Positions 4,438 to 56,482 of a stretch of DNA of 64,000 nt are shown one piece after another. Within the stretch, counting starts at the first letter, position 1; every line of letters starts with the position of its first letter. The DNA lies in assembly GCA_964605735.1 (NCBI GenBank), contig CAZSDS010000001.1, positions 573,864 to 637,863 on the forward strand. The letters run 5' to 3'. The translations under genes were made by a program, and so were the position numbers. Below the pieces are notes generated by a model. That model was not told the DNA's origin and did no database searches. It saw only the letters and a list, made by a program, of their open reading frames with translations. Source of the DNA: an uncultured Candidatus Saccharibacteria bacterium. Its GTDB lineage: Bacteria; Patescibacteriota; Doudnabacteria; UBA920; O2-02-FULL-48-8.

Positions 4438-4881
4438 TTATTTTCCGGATAATTCTTCTTTTGCGATTTTGGAAACCACAGAACCGTCAGTCTGGCCTTT
4501 TGCGCGCGCCAAAACTTCCTTCATGACTTTGCCAAAATCAGCCGTCGTCGCGTTGGTTTCCGAAACAACTGCGCGCACCAGTTCCCTGACCTGGTCTTCA
4601 CCCATCTGTTGCGGCAAGTATTTGACCAAAACAGCCATTTGCTTCTCTTCGTGCTCAACTAAATCTTGTCGGCCGCCGGATTTGAAGCTGTCGATTGAAT
4701 CCTTATGCTGTTTTACTTTTTTGGCGATGACCTTAAGAGCTTCTGCTTCATCAAGGGCGCTTCCCTTTTCTATCTCAGCGTTCTTGATTTCAGATTTGAT
4801 GCTGCGCAAAGCGCTCAGGCTGACTTCGTCCTTGGAGCGCATTGCGGTTTTAAAGTCTTCGTTTATTTGATCGAGTATCAT
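4438..4881 (-). CDS. yqeY: GatB/YqeY domain protein
   Basis: 147 aa. The N-terminus MILDQINEDFKTAMRSKD... matches the YqeY family. The rpsU-yqeY pairing is a conserved arrangement. Confidence 0.85.
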   Translation of the reverse strand: MILDQINEDFKTAMRSKDEVSLSALRSIKSEIKNAEIEKGSALDEAEALKVIAKKVKQHKDSIDSFKSGGRQDLVEHEEKQMAVLVKYLPQQMGEDQVRELVRAVVSETNATTADFGKVMKEVLARAKGQTDGSVVSKIAKEELSGK

Positions 4882-4890
4882 TGAGAAATG

Positions 4891-5579: not shown

Positions 5580-6860
5580 CTAACGGCCCAATCTTTTCTT
5601 CACCTCATCAATAATGCGCTCAGTGGTGAACAACTCCTGCATGCCTGAGCGGACATCGCGCAGAATGACGGTCCCGTCACGCGCTTCCTTCTGTCCTATG
5701 ATCAGCGCAATGCTAACTTTGTTTGACTCAGCCAGCTTCAGTTGGGTTTTGATTGAACCAGGGCCGATAAATTCCGAAGCCACTATGTTCTGTGCCCACA
5801 GCTCGCTGAACAGCCGCAAGGTTTTCTTGGCAGCCAAATCTCCAAGCGGCACCAGATACACGTCAACTTTATTTTTGGATGCGAATTTAATGTTCCCGGC
5901 CTCAAAAGCAGTCAGGACATTTTCCATCGCCCCGTTAAAGCCCAAAGCAGTGGCCGGTTGTCCGCCAAAACTCTGCACCAAATCATCCGCATGCCCGCCG
6001 GCTCCCAGCACAATATCCTGTCCGTTCCCGCGGTATCTGATTTCAAAAACAGTCTTGCGTGACCACGGCGCACCAATAATCTTTTGATTTAAGTTATAGA
6101 CCAATCCAAGCTCATCCAATCCCTCCAGCACGCCAATAAAATGCCTGCGGCAGTTTTCGTCCAAATAATCAATCAAAGCCGGAGCCTCATTCGCCACCGC
6201 ACTGCAAGACAAATTGGTGCAGGCTAAAATCTTAACCGGATAAGTGTCAATGGCCTCCACGCAGTTCTCGCATAGATCATACTTCTTGTCCTTAAAGTAG
6301 TTGCGCAAAACTTCCTGGTAAGCAGGCAGACATTCCAGACAGCCAATGTTATTGATCTCCAAAGACAAATCCTGCAAACCAATTTCAGAAAAGAGACGGT
6401 ACAAAAGGTTTATGACCTGTGCATCTGCGATAGGCGCGGTTTCGCCAAAAATCTGCAAACCGAATTCGGTGCCTTGCTTGATCTGCCCTTGCCTGCTGTA
6501 TGTGTAAGGCGAAAGATAATACCACTTGCTGACCTTCTCCCGCTCAGGGAATTGGTACTCAAGGTAAGCACGCACCAGCCCAAACAAACTGTTCGGCTTC
6601 AGGGCAAGCCGGTTGTTTCCCTTTTCATCCGGAATCCGCACCAGTTCGCCAACCCCAAGCTGTTCCCAGTTTTTGAACAAACGGGCATCTTCCAGCATCG
6701 GCGTTTCGATTCTTGAATAGCCAAAGGTATGGGCCAGGCTGGTAAACTTTTCCGCAAAAAAATCAAAGCTCAAATGCTGGTCAGGCAGAAGATCATAGGA
6801 GCCTGGCAATCTTGCCGGGGCTTTTTCGACTGTTGGAGTAATTTTCTTTGGTCTACCCAT
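5580..6860 (-). CDS. hisS: Histidyl-tRNA synthetase (class II)
   Basis: 426 aa. HisS N-terminal motifs are present, along with a class II motif-3-like GGQP...GF..G segment. Confidence 0.93.
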   Translation of the reverse strand: MGRPKKITPTVEKAPARLPGSYDLLPDQHLSFDFFAEKFTSLAHTFGYSRIETPMLEDARLFKNWEQLGVGELVRIPDEKGNNRLALKPNSLFGLVRAYLEYQFPEREKVSKWYYLSPYTYSRQGQIKQGTEFGLQIFGETAPIADAQVINLLYRLFSEIGLQDLSLEINNIGCLECLPAYQEVLRNYFKDKKYDLCENCVEAIDTYPVKILACTNLSCSAVANEAPALIDYLDENCRRHFIGVLEGLDELGLVYNLNQKIIGAPWSRKTVFEIRYRGNGQDIVLGAGGHADDLVQSFGGQPATALGFNGAMENVLTAFEAGNIKFASKNKVDVYLVPLGDLAAKKTLRLFSELWAQNIVASEFIGPGSIKTQLKLAESNKVSIALIIGQKEARDGTVILRDVRSGMQELFTTERIIDEVKKRLGR

Positions 6861-39536: not shown

Positions 39537-39615
39537 ATGTACCTCCTTGGAACTAGCGAAAAAAATCGCCCAGGCAAGGGCCCAGGCGACCAGAGTACAG
39601 TAGTTTTGAAACGTC

Positions 39616-40116
39616 TTACAGCCGCACGCTCACAGGATTGTGGGCGGGTTTGGGAGAAACCCAGGAGCTGAAGGTTTTCCGTTCCAGGAACCGGGTCCGG
39701 CGGCGCGACCGCTTCTTCCGTTTGGTGACACACTGGCGAACTGCTTCGCGCCGCAATTTCTCGCGGAGCCTGAGCAACTCGGTAGGACTGTGATCATGCC
39801 CCCATCTGCGCCCGACAGGAAAAACAGTGCTCGTCCACCGGCCGCTGATTTCGTTGCGGCGGCAAATGACAATGTGACGCAGATTCACGCCATTGTTAAG
39901 TGGAACCGTACGTCCCACCGCCTCCAACAGAGTAACAAGGCCAAGCCGCGCCAGCCTGACTTGGTAGAGCTTGCAATGGCCTCCAAGTTTGAAATGCACA
40001 TGGACTTCGCACTCGGAGGGCAATACATCTCCCCATTTCAGAGCTGAAATACGACCCCAGCGAACCTCGTCTCCCCGCTTCTTGAAGTGAACAGCCAACT
40101 GTCCGCGACGTTTCAT
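39616..40116 (-). CDS. Arg-rich GC-rich ORF, tentatively a degenerate DUF559-like endonuclease-fold protein
   Basis: 166 aa. ECEVHVHFKLGGH and NLRHIVICRRNEI loosely match the DUF559 core. It lies at the left end of the GC-rich island. An antisense ORF (39640..40047) is equally long, so the coding strand is uncertain. Confidence 0.3.
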   Translation of the reverse strand: MKRRGQLAVHFKKRGDEVRWGRISALKWGDVLPSECEVHVHFKLGGHCKLYQVRLARLGLVTLLEAVGRTVPLNNGVNLRHIVICRRNEISGRWTSTVFPVGRRWGHDHSPTELLRLREKLRREAVRQCVTKRKKRSRRRTRFLERKTFSSWVSPKPAHNPVSVRL

Positions 40117-40239
40117 TCAACCCCCTACGGTTTGTGGGAACGAACTGTGATAACCCAAGCATAAAGAAAAAATGGATTTCGTGCAAATAAAAAACGGGGC
40201 TCCACAGAGGAGACCCCGCAAAACTTACTTGAACAAAAC

Positions 40240-41151
40240 TTACCTGAGGCGGCGAAGCCTTGTTGCCCCGCCGATCAGCGCCACCCCGAACAACAGCAGC
40301 GATGCTGGTTCCGGCACGCTCTTCCCCTGGATGACCCGGTCATGTCCGCCATAGTACTCGCCCGGCTGGAGCACGAGCGGCGTCCTGAGGTTGAAGACCA
40401 CCCGCCCGATCGGGTCGGTTGACCCGTCCTGGAAAACGCGATTCACACCGGTGTAGGAGGTGGGATTGTCCCCGCCCCAGACAATGGTGGAAAACACGTC
40501 GCCGTTGAAGCTCCCGGTGTTGACCGGCAGACATCCGACGTTCGGCTCCGTGCAGTTGCCCGTAACCGACCAGATGTTGAACCGGTAGCTCAACTCCGGG
40601 TTGTTCGGGTCAGTGATCGTGTTGTAATAGCCGTCGTAGTTGAAGTACCCGATGATCTGGTCGATGACCGTAACCTCGGTGATCTTGAAGTAACTGGCGT
40701 ACATCCAATCCCAGTTGTTGGCCTCGGCGTAGTTCTGGTAGAGCCCAGGTGTACTGGCGTTCGCCGTACCCTGCGCCTGCGCGTTGTAGAAATCGCCGTA
40801 GGTGCCGTCCTCGATGCCGTTGTTGTCGTAAACGATATTGCCGTCATTGAGGAAGGTCATGGCCTGACCGGCAGTTTCCGGAAACCATGTGTCCCGGTGC
40901 CAGATCTGCCCGGCGTAGCCCCAGGTTGTGGGATCATCCGTGATGAAAGCCATGTTGCCGCCGCTGGCGCGCGTTCCGTTTGGCTGGTTGCCGGTCGGGA
41001 ACTTGCCGCCAGTGATGGCGTAATGGTAATCGTAGATATCCGCCTGGTTGTCTGCCCCGCCGTTGAACGGAAAAATCGGACCAGCCACGGCCGCGGCCGG
41101 AACGAACGCAACCATGCACGCCAGAGCCAGGGCAGTTTTCTTGAGACTCAT
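40240..41151 (-). CDS. Secreted PEP-CTERM domain protein (exosortase substrate)
   Basis: About 303 aa from ATGATG at 41151-41154. AAGGAG is just upstream. The N-terminal signal peptide is MSLKKTALALACMVAFVPAAAVAG. The C-terminus VPEPASLLLFGVALIGGATRLRRLR is the canonical PEP motif plus TM helix plus Arg cluster. The body is Gly/Asn/Tyr-rich. Local GC is clearly above background. The 519-aa track ORF is a spurious N-terminal extension that overlaps the next gene. Confidence 0.8.
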   Translation of the reverse strand: MSLKKTALALACMVAFVPAAAVAGPIFPFNGGADNQADIYDYHYAITGGKFPTGNQPNGTRASGGNMAFITDDPTTWGYAGQIWHRDTWFPETAGQAMTFLNDGNIVYDNNGIEDGTYGDFYNAQAQGTANASTPGLYQNYAEANNWDWMYASYFKITEVTVIDQIIGYFNYDGYYNTITDPNNPELSYRFNIWSVTGNCTEPNVGCLPVNTGSFNGDVFSTIVWGGDNPTSYTGVNRVFQDGSTDPIGRVVFNLRTPLVLQPGEYYGGHDRVIQGKSVPEPASLLLFGVALIGGATRLRRLR

Positions 41152-41305
41152 CATCGCTCCTTGGAAAAAATTGTCACAACACTTTTTTCGCACTGCTTTG
41201 TTGTTCTTACTCACACCTCCTTTATTTGTATTGTGGAATGTACAATAGAAAAAGATACTAAATTTCTGAGGTTTTGTCAACGCCGGCAAAGCAATAAACA
41301 AGGCC

Positions 41306-41341
41306 AAAGAAAAAAGCGGAGCCCCAAGAAGGAACTCCGCC
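41306..41341 (-). terminator. Rho-independent terminator after PEP-CTERM gene 2
   Basis: On the minus strand, hairpin gcggagttccttcttggggctccgc followed by ttttttctttgg. Confidence 0.65.
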
Positions 41342-41381
41342 CAAAAACTGGCAGATGATATTGTGCGGACGAACCGGTGAA

Positions 41382-42107
41382 CTAGCGGCGGCGCCGGCGA
41401 TACGCCCGTGCCCCGCCGATCAGCGCCATCCCGACCAGCAACACGGACGCTGGTTCGGGCACGTTGCCTGTGGTATCCACCATGATTGCGGACCGTCCCA
41501 GCTCCTGCTGACCGTTGTACGCGACCAGGGCAAACGTGTACTGCCCAGGTGCGTTCGGATCCCAGGATCCGGGAGGTGCCACTCCGCCAAAGAGCCCGGG
41601 GAAACCCCAGTCCGTTGACAGAAACCCAAAGCCGAGGTTGTTGGAGCTTTCGGCCAGAGCCGGGAGCGCCACCCCGCCCAGCGAGGTATAGCCATGGTTT
41701 GAGGAATCCGTCCCCGAACCCGGATCGAAATCGTAGTACAGCCGAAGTTCGGTCACGGGTGCAGTGCCGGTGTACGAGTAGAAGGCGTTGAAGTTCCACG
41801 TGGCGTAGGTTGGATTGCCGTTGAGGATGTCACCGCCGGCCTGAGCGTAAAAAATTCCCGCGCCGTTGTCGGTCACCGCCAGGTTTGCGAAGCGCTGTGC
41901 CGCACTCATCCCGAGGATGATCTCGCCGCCGCCGAAGTCGACCGTGGTGATCGCCACGCTTGTGTTGGGAATTCCGCTGCCGCCAAACGTTGCCTGGGGC
42001 AGCGCACCGAACGTATCGAACATCGGAACGATCGGTGAGGCGTGAGCCGTGTCGGCCATGGCAAAGATAGCCAAGGCCACGAGGGTCGAAAGCACACTTC
42101 TTTTCAT
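41382..42107 (-). CDS. Secreted PEP-CTERM domain protein (exosortase substrate), paralogous in architecture to 40240..41151
   Basis: About 241 aa from ATG 42107. AGGAGG is 6 nt upstream. The signal peptide is MKRSVLSTLVALAIFAMADTAHA. The C-terminus is VPEPASVLLVGMALIGGARAYRRRRR. The gene is GC-rich. Confidence 0.8.
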   Translation of the reverse strand: MKRSVLSTLVALAIFAMADTAHASPIVPMFDTFGALPQATFGGSGIPNTSVAITTVDFGGGEIILGMSAAQRFANLAVTDNGAGIFYAQAGGDILNGNPTYATWNFNAFYSYTGTAPVTELRLYYDFDPGSGTDSSNHGYTSLGGVALPALAESSNNLGFGFLSTDWGFPGLFGGVAPPGSWDPNAPGQYTFALVAYNGQQELGRSAIMVDTTGNVPEPASVLLVGMALIGGARAYRRRRR

Positions 42108-42203
42108 CTGCATCCTCCTGCGGTTGTAGAAACTGCCTGAAACACTGTGAACACTTTGCATAGCATACTCTTTTTGGTCCCGTTTGTCAACGCTTTAAGG
42201 GCT

Positions 42204-44051: not shown

Positions 44052-44120
44052 GTCAACCTTGACTGAGGGAAGTCTTTTTTGTATAAAACAAAAAGCAAGA
44101 TCAAACTATTAGGAGGTTTG

Positions 44121-44576
44121 ATGCAAACACACGTTCACGAAGAAAGCGGAGATGTTGTCGAAGGATTGCAGCTCGCCCCGGGCGCAATCGTCCGACCGGG
44201 CGATGTATTCGCCGCCGCGGATGGCAACTGGAGGTTCTTGCCTTGCAGTTTCGTACTCGGCAACTCTCTGGTCAAATGGGTTCGGCCGCGTGGCGACCTG
44301 TCCCAATCCGCCCGGGAAGTCCTGCTCCTGCTCACGGACCGCGAAAAGCGCCCCAAGTTCATTCACGTTTTTCAGCACACGTTCGCGATCGCGTGCCATA
44401 ACGATTTCAACAGCATCGATTGGCCGCGAACCAAGTATCCGCTCATCCTCAACCCGGACACGCTCCGGGAACTGATCGATTACGGGTACATCGAACAGCA
44501 GCAGGTTTTCGGCAGTGTCTACGGCGTCACTGAACTCGGGCACCAGCGCGCCGCGCAGCTGCGTCAGCAGAACTGA
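44121..44576 (+). CDS. Hypothetical protein, GC-rich orphan (152 aa)
   Basis: AGGAGG lies 5 nt before the ATG at 44121. A terminator follows. Composition is visibly GC-richer than in neighbouring genes. I recognise no family. Confidence 0.5.
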   Translation: MQTHVHEESGDVVEGLQLAPGAIVRPGDVFAAADGNWRFLPCSFVLGNSLVKWVRPRGDLSQSAREVLLLLTDREKRPKFIHVFQHTFAIACHNDFNSIDWPRTKYPLILNPDTLRELIDYGYIEQQQVFGSVYGVTELGHQRAAQLRQQN

Positions 44577-45042: not shown

Positions 45043-46788
45043 ATGCTCAACTTCCTTACCAACACCAAAAGTTATTTGTCTCGCGTCTGGCAAGGCTTCA
45101 GGCTATTGCCCAATCTTAAACGCAGCCAGATTCCGTTGGTTTTGGACAGCATGACAAAAAAAGATTTCTACACGATATCCGCATTCGCGGCAATCCTGAT
45201 TGCCTCGGGCGGATTTTTGATTTCCCATTATTCATCCGCCGGCACAGGAACCGAACCCGATTTTGGCGGTGAAATAGTGGAAGGCTTGGTGGGCCAACCG
45301 CAGTTCATCAACCCAATTCTCGCCCCAGCCAGCTCAGTGGATTCTGATATTTCCAAAATCGTCTATTCCCAGCTTTTGAAATTCAACAAAGACCTGGAGC
45401 TTGTTCCTGATATGGCCGAAAGCCTGCCGCAAATCTCAGATGACCAAAAAATCTACACGCTCAAACTCAAACCAAACTTAAAATGGCACGACGGAAAGCC
45501 AATCCAGGCGGATGACGTTGTCTTCACAATCGAAACAATCCAAAATTCCGACTTTGAATCCCCGCTCCGCGCCAACTGGAGCCGCGTGCGGGTAACAAAA
45601 CAAGATGATTTAACTTTGGTCTTTACTCTGCGAGAAGTTTCCGCCTCATTTATCACCAACTTCACCCTGCAAATCATCCCTAAGCATGTTTGGAAAGATC
45701 TAAGCCCAAGCAGTTTCCGCCTGAACGCGGCAAACTTGAGCCCTGTTGGTTCCGGACCGTACATTTTCCGAGAAATCAAAAAAACCTCTGACGGCACCAT
45801 CCGCTCAATGTCTTTCCGGTCCAACCAAACATTCCACGAAGGCCAGCCTTACATTGACCGCGTCACGTTCAAGTTCTACAACGACTACGACAGTCTGATC
45901 AACGCCTTCCAGGGCAAAGAAGTAAACAGCATGGGCTATCTGCCGTTTGACCGCAAAGCAGTTGAGAGCAACGGAAAATTCGCCCAGCACAAATTTAATC
46001 TGCCGCAGTACCAAGCCGTGTTCTTCAACCTGCCTAAATCCCCTGTTCTGGCGGACAAGGCAGTAAGACAAGCCCTCTGGCTGACCACCAACCGCCAGGC
46101 AATTATTGATGAAGTCTATTTAGGGTTCGCCAAACCGGCTTACGGACCGATTTTGGAAGGAAACCTTGGGTATAACCCCGAGATTGAAGCCAAAACTCAT
46201 ACCAATTTAGTGGAGGCTGCTGAGTTATTGGACAAAGCCGGATGGGTTTTGGACCCGGAAACCAACCTCAGAAAAAAAGGAACCAGACAGCTGGAGTTCA
46301 ACCTGGCTACGAATAATTTCGTAGTCAACGTCAAGACAGCGCAAATCCTGCAAAGCGCCTGGCAACAGATTGGGGCCGTGGTAAACCTCGTCATTGTGTC
46401 CCCTCAGGAACTACAACAGGACTATATCAGGTCCAGGAATTTTGACGCCTTGCTGTTCTTTGAAAACACTGGCGCAGACCCTGACCCATATCCGTTCTGG
46501 CACTCCTCACAGGCCCGTGACCCGGGACTTAACCTTTCAAGTTTCAGCAACGCTGAAGCTGATCGCCTCCTGACTACTGCCAGGCAGACCATTGACGTAA
46601 ACGTCAGGACGCAAAACTACATGCAGTTCCAAAACATTATTTACACGGAAATCCCGGCCATCTTCCTGAACAACGTGGTTTATGTTTACAATGTCCCACA
46701 GGATTTAAGGGGCATTAACCTAACAACTGCAATCCAGCCATTCGAACGATTCACTAATATAGCAAAATGGTATCTGGAAACTAAATAA
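45043..46788 (+). CDS. ABC transporter substrate-binding protein, family 5 (OppA/DppA/NikA-like)
   Basis: 581 aa. The SBP_bac_5 core includes KWHDGKPIQADDVVFTIE. The N-terminus is a TM/signal anchor. The start may instead be the ATG at 45151. Confidence 0.85.
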   Translation: MLNFLTNTKSYLSRVWQGFRLLPNLKRSQIPLVLDSMTKKDFYTISAFAAILIASGGFLISHYSSAGTGTEPDFGGEIVEGLVGQPQFINPILAPASSVDSDISKIVYSQLLKFNKDLELVPDMAESLPQISDDQKIYTLKLKPNLKWHDGKPIQADDVVFTIETIQNSDFESPLRANWSRVRVTKQDDLTLVFTLREVSASFITNFTLQIIPKHVWKDLSPSSFRLNAANLSPVGSGPYIFREIKKTSDGTIRSMSFRSNQTFHEGQPYIDRVTFKFYNDYDSLINAFQGKEVNSMGYLPFDRKAVESNGKFAQHKFNLPQYQAVFFNLPKSPVLADKAVRQALWLTTNRQAIIDEVYLGFAKPAYGPILEGNLGYNPEIEAKTHTNLVEAAELLDKAGWVLDPETNLRKKGTRQLEFNLATNNFVVNVKTAQILQSAWQQIGAVVNLVIVSPQELQQDYIRSRNFDALLFFENTGADPDPYPFWHSSQARDPGLNLSSFSNAEADRLLTTARQTIDVNVRTQNYMQFQNIIYTEIPAIFLNNVVYVYNVPQDLRGINLTTAIQPFERFTNIAKWYLETK

Positions 46789-47228
46789 GACCATCATCCA
46801 GCCGTACTCCGCAAAGGAACGGTTGTTTTAAGGAGGATTAAAGTGGCGAAGGATGTCGGCTATTCTGGGCCTGGCGCATTCGAGGGTTCCTTGGGCTGCG
46901 GCAAATACAGCAGAGCGCGTTCATTCTCAAGCTGACAGTTTCCAAGCCGCCCAATTTCCGGATGGGGTTTCGCGGGCCAATAAAGGAACACTTGAGAAAA
47001 TGTCCGCTTTGCAGAAAGGACACCAAACAGCTCAAGCTCGAAATTCGCCAGAAGTTAATTTCCAGTTTCAACAAATCAATCCGGATGTTTTTGGCTGAGC
47101 AGGCGGCAAAGGAAGCCAGAAGCAAATTCGCTTTGGTGGTTAACAATGACTAGGACAAACAAACCTGGTCATTTTTTTATGGCAAAAAATCCAAAACAAA
47201 AAAACGCCTCCTATCAGAGGTGCTCTTT

Positions 47229-47315
47229 TGGTGGGCACGGAGAGAGTCGAACTCTCACGGGATTGCTCCCGCACGCACCTGAAGCGTGTGCGTCTGCCAG
47301 TTCCGCCACGTGCCC
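47229..47315 (-). tRNA. tRNA-Leu (anticodon CAG), type II with a long variable arm
   Basis: Hand-folded: GGGCACG acceptor, D arm, CACGC-TTCAGGT-GCGTG anticodon arm, variable hairpin CGGGAGCAATCCCG, GAGAG-TTCGACT-CTCTC T arm, encoded CCA. Confidence 0.85.
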
Positions 47316-47396
47316 ATATTCATTTGTGCAACATTGAAAATTTACGCTATTTTTTTAGTTTTGTAAAGTAACCAAAGCCAGCTACAAGGAGGGTTC

Positions 47397-47759
47397 ATGA
47401 AAGACAATGAGAAATTTCTCACTGCGGCGCAGGCCGGCAAGGAAGTTGGCGTAAGCAAACGGGCTATTTATGCCTGGCTTCATGCGGGCAAAATAACAGC
47501 GGTTGAGCGGACCCGGGGGCACATAATCATTCCCAGGTCTTCCCTCTACAGACTTACCAACACCAGGACCATTCCCGGCACTGATGGTCAGAAATGGGCT
47601 GGGATTAATAAAGCCAGCGCGTACGCAAAAATCCACAAGAACACCCTGTTCAAATGGCTTCGGTCCGGAGAAATCGAATATGCCCACACCGCCGGAGGCA
47701 GCCCGCTGATCCGATTGAATTCCCTTCTCAGATACAGACGCCAACGCATGGGAAATTGA
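47397..47759 (+). CDS. Tandem helix-turn-helix (excisionase/Xis-type HTH_17 x2) DNA-binding protein
   Basis: 120 aa. CAAGGAGGG is the SD. Two repeats of the excisionase-family HTH are present (LTAAQAGKEVGVSKRAIYAWLHAGKITAVE and INKASAYAKIHKNTLFKWLRSGEIEYAH). It lies 82 bp from the tRNA-Leu 5' end. Confidence 0.65.
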   Translation: MKDNEKFLTAAQAGKEVGVSKRAIYAWLHAGKITAVERTRGHIIIPRSSLYRLTNTRTIPGTDGQKWAGINKASAYAKIHKNTLFKWLRSGEIEYAHTAGGSPLIRLNSLLRYRRQRMGN

Positions 47760-47772
47760 CTCGCAAGTCTCG

Positions 47773-47799
47773 GCGCTTTCGCGGAAAGCGCTTTTTTTA
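47773..47799 (+). terminator. Rho-independent terminator
   Basis: Hairpin gcgctttcgcggaaagcgc followed by ttttttt. Confidence 0.8.
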
Positions 47800-47867
47800 T
47801 GGCCAAGCTGTAACTTTTCCGGCAATCCATCGTTAATAACATTAATATGGGGTAATCAGGACCCCTC

Positions 47868-47896
47868 TTGACTTGCCTCAAACTTTCGTATATACT
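47868..47896 (+). promoter_or_regulatory. Sigma70-like promoter for the RNase J gene
   Basis: TTGACT-N17-TATACT. A roughly 190-nt leader follows, containing the hairpin ccccgcaacacacggggg. Confidence 0.5.
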
Positions 47897-48090
47897 ATCC
47901 ATGCTTAAGTTTGACCCTTACAGAAATAAAAACAATCAAATAGGCTTTAGTTAATAGAAAATAGCCAATTTCCCGTTGTTTATTTTGTGTTAATTAAGCC
48001 TCTGATGCCGCAAGGATTGCCTTGCCTCAAGCTTACTATTCAATAATTTATTAATTCCCCGCAACACACGGGGGAAAGGTTTAGTTTTTC

Positions 48091-49842
48091 ATGCCAACAC
48101 AAGGCAATATGCGTAGCCGATCGGCTGTGGCCGCTCGTCAGCAGGAAAAATCCCAATCCGCTCCTACCCGCTCCAAGGATGTCTTGAAAGTCATTCCTTT
48201 GGGTGGTATCGAAGAAGTCGGTGAAAACATGACTATCTTGGAGTACGGCGATGACATTCTGGTCATTGACATGGGCTTGGGCTTCCCTGACGAAACCATG
48301 CCTGGAATCGACTACATCATTCCAAACACCAAGTATCTGGAAGATAACAAAAAGCGCATTAAAGGCGTAATTGTTACTCACGGCCACTTGGACCACATTG
48401 GGGCAGTCCCATACATTCTGCCCAAAATCGGTGATCCGCCAATCTACACCATGAAACTCACCGGCGAACTTATCAAAAAGCGCCTGGAGGAGTTCCACTT
48501 GCTTGGCCGATCCCAAATCCATGAATTGAACAAGGATGACATCCTTACATTGGGGAACTTCCGAATTCGATTCTTCCGCATCAACCACAACATTCCTGAT
48601 GGCGTTGGTCTGGCGATCAACACCCCAGCAGGCCTGATGGTTTATGCAACTGACTGGAAATTCGACCACACTCCTGTGGACGGAAGACCAACCGAGTTTG
48701 ATAAACTCGCCAAATTCGGCGGCGAAGGCGTTGCTCTGCTTTTGAGCGACTCCACAAACGCCGAGGTCCCTGGTTACTCCATTTCTGAAAAAACTTTGGG
48801 GGAAACCATTGACCGCATCATGCAGGACGCAAAAGGACGCGTTATCTTTGCAACATTCTCAACCCTGATCTCACGCGTGCAGCAAGTCATAGACGCTGCA
48901 TATAAGACAAACAGAAAGATCGTGGTTACAGGGCGTTCACTCGTGAACAATATTGAGATCTGTCTGGCAACCAATTATCTGAGGATGCCAGCCAAAAACA
49001 TGATCATTAAGACTGAGCAGGCTAAAAAACTTCCTGACAACCAAGTGGTAATTTTGACCACGGGTTCACAGGGAGAAGAAGCCGCTGCTCTGGCCAGGAT
49101 GGCCAGAGGCGAACACAAGACCATCGAAATCAAACGCGGTGACACAGTTGTTGTTTCTGCCTCCCCTATCCCTGGCAACGAACGCGCAGTTTCTGGAATT
49201 CTTTCCAGCTTGGCCCGCCAAGGCGCAAAAGTCCTTTACCAAAAAATCTTGGATGTTCACACTTCCGGTCACGCCCGTCAGGAAGACTTGAAGCTGATGA
49301 TCTCCTTAACAAAACCTAAATTCTTCATGCCTATTCACGGCGAACATCACATGTTGCTCGCCCACGCAGATTTAGCGAAAGGCGTTGGCGTTCCAGAACA
49401 GAACATCTTTACATTGGACAACGGCCAACAGCTTGAGCTTTCTGCCAATGGCGTGAAAGTTGCAGAAGCGAAAATCCCAACCGGTTACGTCTTTGTTGAC
49501 GGCGCTGGCGTGGGTGACGTAGGCGAAGTTGTGTTGCGCGACCGTACGGTCATGAGCAAAGACGGCATGTTCGTCATCATCATGGTGGTGGACAAGAAAA
49601 CCGGCAAGCTCACACAGCAACCAGACATTATCTCCCGCGGTTTCATTTACATGAAAGGATCGGAAGATCTTTTGAAAGAAGTGAAGCACGAAGTGAGAAA
49701 AGCCGTGGAAAGCAAGAGCAAAGTAAAAGCTGAGGCCAACTGGTCTTATATCCGCTCTGAAGTCCGCGACCAAATCGGCGAATTCCTGTTCCAAAGAACA
49801 GAACGCAGACCAATGATACTTCCAGTTGTAATTGAAGTTTAA
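48091..49842 (+). CDS. rnj: Ribonuclease J (beta-CASP metallo-beta-lactamase RNase)
   Basis: 583 aa. HGHLDHIG is the metallo-beta-lactamase motif II. Beta-CASP and C-terminal domains are present. The N-terminus is typical of RNase J. Confidence 0.93.
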   Translation: MPTQGNMRSRSAVAARQQEKSQSAPTRSKDVLKVIPLGGIEEVGENMTILEYGDDILVIDMGLGFPDETMPGIDYIIPNTKYLEDNKKRIKGVIVTHGHLDHIGAVPYILPKIGDPPIYTMKLTGELIKKRLEEFHLLGRSQIHELNKDDILTLGNFRIRFFRINHNIPDGVGLAINTPAGLMVYATDWKFDHTPVDGRPTEFDKLAKFGGEGVALLLSDSTNAEVPGYSISEKTLGETIDRIMQDAKGRVIFATFSTLISRVQQVIDAAYKTNRKIVVTGRSLVNNIEICLATNYLRMPAKNMIIKTEQAKKLPDNQVVILTTGSQGEEAAALARMARGEHKTIEIKRGDTVVVSASPIPGNERAVSGILSSLARQGAKVLYQKILDVHTSGHARQEDLKLMISLTKPKFFMPIHGEHHMLLAHADLAKGVGVPEQNIFTLDNGQQLELSANGVKVAEAKIPTGYVFVDGAGVGDVGEVVLRDRTVMSKDGMFVIIMVVDKKTGKLTQQPDIISRGFIYMKGSEDLLKEVKHEVRKAVESKSKVKAEANWSYIRSEVRDQIGEFLFQRTERRPMILPVVIEV

Positions 49843-56263: not shown

Positions 56264-56482
56264 ATGCCACAGGCTCCAACCAAGAAACCTTGCCTGTTCT
56301 GCACGGAAAAAATTTCCTACATTGATTACAAGGATACTCAGTTCCTGCGCAGATTCATGTCTCCGCACGCCAAGATCCTGTCCTCAACCAAAACAGGCAC
56401 TTGCGGCAAGCACCAAAGAATGGTGTCACAGGCCCTGAAGAGGGCACGACACATGGCCTTGCTGCCATTTGTAGCAAGTTAA
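56264..56482 (+). CDS. rpsR: 30S ribosomal protein S18
   Basis: 72 aa. CLFCTEKISYIDYKDTQFLRRFMS matches S18. Confidence 0.9.
   Translation: MPQAPTKKPCLFCTEKISYIDYKDTQFLRRFMSPHAKILSSTKTGTCGKHQRMVSQALKRARHMALLPFVAS

Follow-up and report, generated by a model that had tools for sequence, protein, structure and literature searches.

We analysed a 64-kb stretch of DNA, referred to below as the window, from a member of Candidatus Doudnabacteria (Patescibacteria) whose best RNase J relatives are metagenome-assembled genomes of Doudnabacteria. Our subject is the interval between a gene for a solute-binding protein of the SBP_bac_5 family (SBP) and the RNase J gene (rnj). Around the resident tRNA-Leu(CAG) gene of this interval, about 1.07 kb of DNA, from 46789 to about 47867, is specific to the lineage and holds two small genes: HTH120, which encodes a protein of 120 amino acids with two excisionase-like domains, and orf103, a frame of 103 codons interrupted by a single-nucleotide deletion (Table 1). 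Upstream of SBP lies secG, a synteny kept in about 20 relatives. The 3' end of the tRNA is 440 nt from the SBP stop codon, and its 5' end is 81 nt from the ATG of HTH120. These 81 nt are AT-rich and common to the divergent tRNA and HTH120 genes, and the promoter-like site of the tRNA falls within them. An initial annotation of the window had described the tRNA-Leu gene, the adjacent helix-turn-helix (HTH) gene with its strong Shine-Dalgarno sequence and its own terminator, and the spacings between them, all of which are present.

HTH120 and the split frame orf103

Two profiles of excisionase-type DNA-binding domains each match HTH120 in two stretches, namely PF12728 HTH_17 (54.9 bits; cut-off, 27) and TIGR01764 'excise', the excisionase family DNA-binding domain (44.3 bits; cut-off, 28.8). 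The two HTH_17 repeats that the initial annotation had read from the translation are thus borne out. The AlphaFold2 model, with a mean predicted local distance difference test score (pLDDT) of 85, consists of two beta-alpha-alpha-beta-beta-alpha winged-helix units, which have the fold of the Xis/MerR N-terminal type and are joined by a flexible, disordered linker at residues 57-63. Its top structural matches are Pukovnik Xis, BldC, RdfS and the GIsul2 excisionase. The two halves of the protein are only 25% identical, indicating that the domain duplication is old.

The same locus is present on a contig of a sister strain, L085 (SRR26389779), where the genes come in the same order and 4210 nt align to the window at 98.9% identity. 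Between the two strains, HTH120 differs by 10 substitutions, of which 9 are synonymous and 1 is non-synonymous. By the Nei-Gojobori method this corresponds to a synonymous rate (dS) of 0.114, a non-synonymous rate (dN) of 0.0036 and a dN/dS of 0.032, compared with 0.043 for rnj; the neutral probability of at most one non-synonymous change among 10 is 2e-5. Given this 9:1 synonymous excess and a dN/dS of the same order as that of rnj, HTH120 is kept by selection and is not decaying. SBP carries 9 synonymous and 3 non-synonymous codon differences from L085. Codon usage was scored, in bits per codon, by a model for which the long genes of the window itself served as training set. HTH120 reaches 0.08 against a native mean of 0.27, and this low score fits a foreign origin.

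The 440 nt between SBP and the tRNA had been described as a degenerate region with two weak open reading frames (ORFs), one with a CPLC motif and one starting at GTG behind a Shine-Dalgarno sequence. Both ORFs exist: a GTG ORF of 30 codons (46843-46935) and an ATG ORF of 63 codons with the CPLC motif (46962-47153). However, the stretch is not diffusely degenerate, as the two are halves of one frameshifted gene. The whole open frame (46842-47150), used as a query, retrieved a single protein, P0080, of 103 amino acids, which is encoded on L085, where orf103 is intact. The N terminus of P0080 is the product of the GTG ORF, and the remainder is that of the CPLC ORF. The sole indel between L085 and the window is at this site, where an A is absent between 46918 and 46919 in the present genome. 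Because P0080 is intact in L085 and one 1-nt gap accounts for the interruption, the two weak ORFs are one gene of 103 codons; by this comparison, orf103 was inactivated recently in this genome by a 1-nt deletion. As an annotation result this is modest: what passed for junk is a single orphan gene with a recent frameshift.

A hairpin of the intrinsic-terminator type overlaps the stop codon of orf103 (47130-47190 folds with -14.6 kcal/mol, z = -2.6). Thus, orf103 closes the SBP transcription unit, which converges on the tRNA's own terminator. The coding score of the 63-codon CPLC ORF is borderline (+0.02). Two other candidate ORFs, one of 81 amino acids proposed by gene callers (46853-47098; score, -0.23) and one of 102 amino acids on the minus strand (-0.29), score within the range of non-coding shadow ORFs and were discarded. 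As for structured RNA, the 440-nt stretch has no Rfam match at E <= 1, and its fold z-scores (-1.9 for the plus strand and -0.2 for the minus strand) are not convincing.

No family match or homologue of orf103 was found in Pfam, PHROGs, NCBIfam, PADLOC or the other libraries searched; if genuine, it is an orphan. Two assignments were rejected. As a zf-HC2 anti-sigma factor, a family with an HxxxCxxC zinc finger, it has no Pfam match even at E <= 10 and no adjoining sigma-factor gene. As a paralogue of ribosomal protein bS18, it has only a weak match to mitochondrial bS18 (E about 0.2), and it does not resemble the S18 that the genome itself encodes (56264-56482).

Table 1. Positions of features around tRNA-Leu(CAG) in the window, and of nested tRNA-Leu sites on contigs of relatives
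Feature	Position	Strand	Remarks
SBP_bac_5 solute-binding protein gene (SBP)	45043..46788	+	Pfam E=1.6e-71; conserved left anchor
Shine-Dalgarno AAGGAGG of orf103	46830..46836	+	6 nt before GTG start; read from sequence
orf103	46843..47153	+	103 codons; HxxxCxxC motif; GTG 46843, stop 47153; split by 1-nt deletion
Intrinsic-terminator-like hairpin	47145..47178	+	10-bp stem, 9-nt loop, then T7; overlaps orf103 stop codon
15-nt direct repeat, left copy TTTTTTTATGGCAAA	47172..47186	+	right copy TTTTTTTATGGCCAA at 47792-47806
Terminator-like hairpin and T-run of the tRNA	47197..47220	-	directly after tRNA 3' end; site 47220-47207, then T tail
tRNA-Leu(CAG), encoded CCA end	47229-47315	-	ARAGORN; resident gene of the locus
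tRNA promoter-like site	47339..47367	-	TTTACA, 17-nt spacer, TAAATT; consensus match only
Shine-Dalgarno AAGGAGG of HTH120	47386..47392	+	4 nt before ATG
HTH120	47397..47759	+	120 amino acids; two Xis/BldC-type winged-helix domains, residues about 7-56 and 67-118
HTH120 intrinsic terminator	47772..47798	+	9-bp G+C-rich hairpin, then T7
rnj promoter and conserved 5' leader	47868..48090	+	TTGACT, 17-nt spacer, TATACT; right border of lineage-specific DNA
RNase J gene (rnj)	48091..49842	+	Pfam; conserved right anchor; 80 related loci
Nested tRNA-Leu sites in relatives	L004 3930-4140; L006 5190-5530; L010 2455-2715; L015 5070-5420; L016 5355-5400		
Nested tRNA-Leu sites in relatives	L019 2195-2420; L022 135-385 and 4230-4276; L024 2510-2790; L029 5365-5575; L032 5650-5735		

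Lineage specificity and the tRNA-Leu insertion hot spot

About 25 Doudnabacteria and more distant Patescibacteria loci keep the order secG-SBP-tRNA-Leu(CAG)-rnj-trpS, without orf103 or HTH120. A profile search of all six-frame ORFs detected no HTH_17-like ORF within 6 kb of rnj in 80 rnj loci, and none was found elsewhere in the 64-kb window. The segments on the two sides of the tRNA (46789-47228 and 47316-47920) have no blastn or tblastn similarity in relatives. Searches beyond the locus agree: phmmer against 1.84e9 protein representatives returned only matches of at most 36% identity to HTH120, with no close homologue, a word-index search of 5.8e9 proteins found among close relatives only HTH120 itself, and neither gene has close homologues in JGI metagenomes or viral contigs. 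On these comparisons, orf103 and HTH120 are genes of this lineage only. On context, the closest relative (L002) is uninformative: 240 nt upstream of the rnj promoter, its contig reaches an unrelated gene and breaks off.

The initial annotation had offered, as one alternative, that the tandem-HTH protein regulates the adjacent RNase J gene. Conservation of the rnj promoter and of about 190 nt of leader extends to relatives without HTH120, and is seen at the nucleotide level in L002, L003, L005, L006 and L038. As these relatives keep the promoter and leader without the gene, HTH120 is not a conserved rnj regulator, and a terminator separates it from rnj. A broader form of the idea, in which HTH120 controls either the divergent tRNA-Leu(CAG) or the downstream rnj, draws on the AT-rich promoter region that HTH120 has in common with the tRNA and on the habit of small winged helix-turn-helix (wHTH) regulators of acting on adjoining promoters, as TraN does on its own operon promoter (PMC10877727). 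Set against this, the relatives have no HTH120, yet all of them express this tRNA and rnj; rnj is preceded by a conserved promoter and leader of its own and would be shielded from HTH120 transcription by the predicted terminator; and no repeated operator-like motif stands out. We consider local regulation decidedly unlikely.

The leader of rnj has features of its own. It matches L002-L011 and L024 at the nucleotide level, contains the invariant and mutually complementary motifs TTGTGTT and AACACA, and has hairpins that appear to covary, as well as a stem-loop just before the Shine-Dalgarno sequence. Rfam returned nothing for it at E <= 1. It could be an autoregulatory leader of RNase J.

In relatives, the gap between SBP and rnj ranges from 335 to 3748 nt and carries unrelated cargo, for example Mur-ligase-like and TrmB-like genes in L012 and genes for secreted proteins in L010 and L024. 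Judged by this variation, the interval around tRNA-Leu(CAG) is an insertion hot spot in relatives. We favour, with moderate confidence, the reading that HTH120 is a functional, horizontally acquired, retained and stand-alone tandem winged-helix DNA-binding protein in this hot spot, with orf103 as a frameshifted small orphan. HTH120 probably came from a mobile element and is now under selection without a recombinase.

A different account, and the one preferred in the initial annotation, is that the locus is a decayed integrative element: HTH120 would be a recombination directionality factor (RDF) that survived the loss of its integrase at tRNA-Leu, and orf103 would be decaying cargo. The domains of HTH120 do belong to the excisionase family, the gene adjoins a tRNA at an insertion hot spot, its codon usage is foreign, and orf103 is frameshifted. 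Furthermore, partial tRNA copies bound inserts in relatives, as in L022, where a copy 4 kb away flanks genes for an ATPase and an SNF2 helicase. However, scans of the called genes between SBP and that for elongation factor P, of six-frame segments of 46760-47240 and 47740-48110 (Pfam, PHROGs and NCBIfam) and of ten further ORFs of the window revealed neither an integrase nor a remnant of one. The phage or integrase remnant suspected at 46.8-47.2 kb is likewise absent from the six-frame scans and from blastn and tblastn comparisons with phage, plasmid and viral-contig collections, in which nothing but the tRNA itself matched.

The proposed direct repeat of the tRNA-Leu 3' end fared no better. 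With up to 3 mismatches, the 3' 26-mer of the tRNA matched only the tRNA itself, and blastn-short with this tRNA and 23 variant tRNA-Leu sequences found no tRNA fragment nearby. An integrated element is located 3' of the tRNA that it targets. Since the tRNA here is on the minus strand, HTH120 lies upstream of its 5' end, on the wrong side for classical integration. HTH120 also has two domains, unlike typical single-domain RDFs, and is under purifying selection, which would be unexpected for an orphaned RDF. What stands of the integrative-element claim is therefore foreign DNA at a tRNA hot spot, and what does not is the integrase and the attachment (att) repeat; we regard a remnant of this kind as unlikely.

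Several points weigh against the reading of HTH120 as an acquired, selected protein. Purifying selection on HTH120 is read from only 10 substitutions between two strains. Divergence from L085 is also patchy across 45265-49473: 11 differences fall in 45345-45804, 1 substitution in 45805-47401, 10 substitutions in 47402-47738 and 22 differences in 48276-49458, a pattern that suggests recombination tracts within the population as its probable cause. No HTH120 promoter passes a consensus scan, and the sole other genome with the gene, at 98.9% identity, is too similar to reveal a binding site or target. The mobile-element origin is suggested by family associations in PHROGs and PADLOC, not by a linked mobile gene. 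For orf103, the coding score is ambiguous to poor, homologues are lacking in the libraries named above, the single-sequence structure model has low confidence (pLDDT 54) and shows only a long C-terminal helix, and the two strains have no substitutions in it by which selection could be tested. Thus, orf103 may not be a genuine gene.

Inverted and nested tRNA-Leu genes in relatives

The same tRNA-Leu(CAG) gene lies between SBP and rnj in 23 relatives, and it is on the plus strand in all but L003, L007 and L010. Plus is also the orientation in outgroups. The genomes with a minus-strand gene (the window, L003 at 5593-5679, L007 at 4804-4890 and L010 at 2549-2635) belong to one clade, in which inverted and plus-strand genomes are interspersed in the RNase J tree; the orientation has therefore flipped several times. 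The tRNA sequence types are discordant with the RNase J phylogeny, the tRNA of the window being 79% identical to that of L003 and 90% identical to that of L011.

In 10 of 25 loci, we found tRNA-Leu genes that are nested: an intact gene lies between an upstream 5' fragment and a downstream 3' fragment, both of which have the same orientation as the intact gene and a different acceptor-stem type (Table 1). Read from the sequences, the older tRNA-Leu is usually interrupted where its D-loop ends. The nested inserts are about 150-200 nt long and free of protein genes; TTTACCCCGCAC at their start and GTGCGGGG at their end form terminal inverted repeats. Up to three levels of nesting occur in L006 and L024, and 'empty' hairpins built from both arms of the repeat are also present in relatives. 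In viral contigs, TTTACCCCGCAC gave four chance matches, none of them near a tRNA. We found no description of nested tRNA-Leu genes in full-text literature searches, nor by a term search of a recent paper on tRNA introns in Patescibacteria. This arrangement is more unusual than the finding on HTH120 and orf103 itself. In these reduced genomes, the SBP-rnj interval is a place of recurrent gene gain, tRNA orientation flips and tRNA-in-tRNA nesting.

A larger segment was observed in L022 (298-4276), where 4 kb lie between an intact tRNA-Leu and its partial 3' copy. Judged from sequence, it encodes an ATPase-like protein of 396 amino acids and an SNF2-like helicase of 794 amino acids with a SWIM-like N terminus. 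The segment resembles an islet between repeats of the tRNA and has no integrase gene.

These observations raise a further explanation for the window, namely that a single unit of about 1.1 kb, comprising orf103, the inverted tRNA-Leu and HTH120, came in and displaced the ancestral plus-strand tRNA-Leu, much as small tRNA-carrying inserts appear to do in relatives. The inverted orientation of the tRNA relative to the ancestral state, with flips scattered through the clade, would agree with such a cassette, as would the discordant tRNA types, the lineage-specific DNA on both tRNA flanks and the intact tRNA-Leu genes found inside older, split ones. A direct repeat of 15 nt, TTTTTTTATGGC(A/C)AA, also brackets the tRNA and HTH120. 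It occurs only twice in the 64-kb window, 620 nt apart, and each copy follows a terminator hairpin, so that the pair could reflect chance (terminator tails) or a junction repeat. Because the copies are terminator tails and orf103 lies outside them, we leave the repeat unexplained and do not use it as evidence. By contrast, the window contains neither a fragment of an older tRNA nor the TTTACCCCGCAC terminal motif, and in L003 and L007 the tRNA is inverted although both genes are absent, showing that inversion and gene gain are separable. Taken together, replacement by a single cassette seems highly unlikely for this genome.

Least probable among the explanations weighed here is that the locus exemplifies an undescribed process of Patescibacteria in which DNA bearing a tRNA-Leu(CAG) of its own enters the resident single-copy tRNA-Leu gene or takes its place. 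Such a process would leave intact tRNA-Leu genes nested in split older ones, within inserts bounded by the inverted repeats TTTACCCCGCAC...GTGCGGGG as seen in relatives, and HTH120 would then serve a larger form of the element, one that codes for proteins, as its DNA-targeting or architectural factor. If a dedicated tRNA-replacing element lies behind the pattern in relatives, it would represent a new route by which selfish DNA can enter an essential single-copy gene without harm.

Two other stretches of the window differ from their surroundings. Between uvrA and uvrC, on the minus strand (39600-42161), lies an island with a G+C content of 0.55-0.62, compared with about 0.47-0.49 in the surrounding genes. 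Two proteins encoded there carry a PEP-CTERM sorting domain at the C terminus (TIGR02595: 18.2 and 21.1 bits; cut-off, 16), and their genes have a common 55-nt repeat at 40264 and 41409. Such an island is unexpected in a Patescibacteria genome and looks horizontally acquired. Between uvrC and secG, an ORF of 165 amino acids (44079-44576), in a stretch with a G+C content of about 0.59, has a low coding score and no match in Pfam or NCBIfam, and is overlapped by an equally long ORF on the opposite strand. This stretch may be another small foreign insert.

Comparison with known excisionase-like proteins

HTH120 aligns end to end with uncharacterised tandem HTH_17 proteins from metagenomes (P0008, P0009, P0011, P0013, P0015, P0025 and others), which resemble it in their two-repeat layout and in length (120-140 amino acids) but are just 24-36% identical to it and are unannotated singletons. 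Three of these distant proteins could be placed in a context: two have small unknown genes around them, as is typical of mobile elements or viruses, and the third is chromosomal, between tgt and uvrB-uvrA-uvrC. Given these mixed contexts, a stand-alone role for such proteins is plausible. Also among the best-scoring relatives of HTH120 were proteins of 2122-3926 amino acids with 9-13 HTH_17-like repeats (P0002, P0003 and P0004), one of them annotated from an assembly of the sea cucumber Apostichopus japonicus (XP_071811412.1).

Two family assignments were considered and set aside. HTH120 is not a classical MerR regulator: PF00376 stays below its cut-off (26.7 compared with 28.2), and the AlphaFold2 model shows no coiled coil and no effector domain. 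Nor does it correspond to the MADS defence protein MAD1, with an NCBIfam score of 18.8 against 80 and no adjoining defence genes; the PADLOC mad1 model matches its N-terminal domain only.

Excisionases and RDFs of known structure, such as Pukovnik Xis (4J2N), RdfS (8DGL) and Tn916 Xis (1Y6U), are single-domain proteins. HTH120 differs from them in its tandem layout, in its position 5' of the tRNA, in the absence of a partner integrase and of att sites, and in being kept by selection without a recombinase. The Streptomyces protein BldC is likewise a single domain, of 68 amino acids (PDB 6AMA/6AMK), whereas HTH120 has two in one chain. BldC is an actinobacterial developmental regulator, so that host and context are unrelated, and the score of HTH120 against the NCBIfam BldC model NF033787 (19.7 bits; cut-off, 77) places it outside the BldC family. 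BldC protomers bind direct repeats as head-to-tail multimers (PMC5859096).

The overall architecture is the same in TraN of plasmid pIP501 (PDB 4P0Y), a monomer of about 120 amino acids that holds an excisionase-like wHTH motif in either half and which binds DNA sequence-specifically as a monomer, represses transcription and binds the promoter of its own operon (PMC10877727). The likeness does not extend to sequence, as phmmer of HTH120 against PDB sequences gave no TraN match at E <= 1. It does not extend to context either: TraN belongs to a conjugative type IV secretion system operon, whereas HTH120 has no plasmid match and housekeeping genes as neighbours. By analogy with BldC, the Xis/RDF proteins and TraN, HTH120 may bind two adjacent half-sites on the same face of the DNA as a covalently linked pair, and act as a transcriptional or architectural regulator. 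Its nearest candidate target would be the 81-nt divergent region that it has in common with the tRNA promoter. What looked like an Xis without an integrase is a protein under selection that appears to stand alone, and it offers a Patescibacteria example of the poorly studied two-domain architecture of the Xis/BldC/TraN type.

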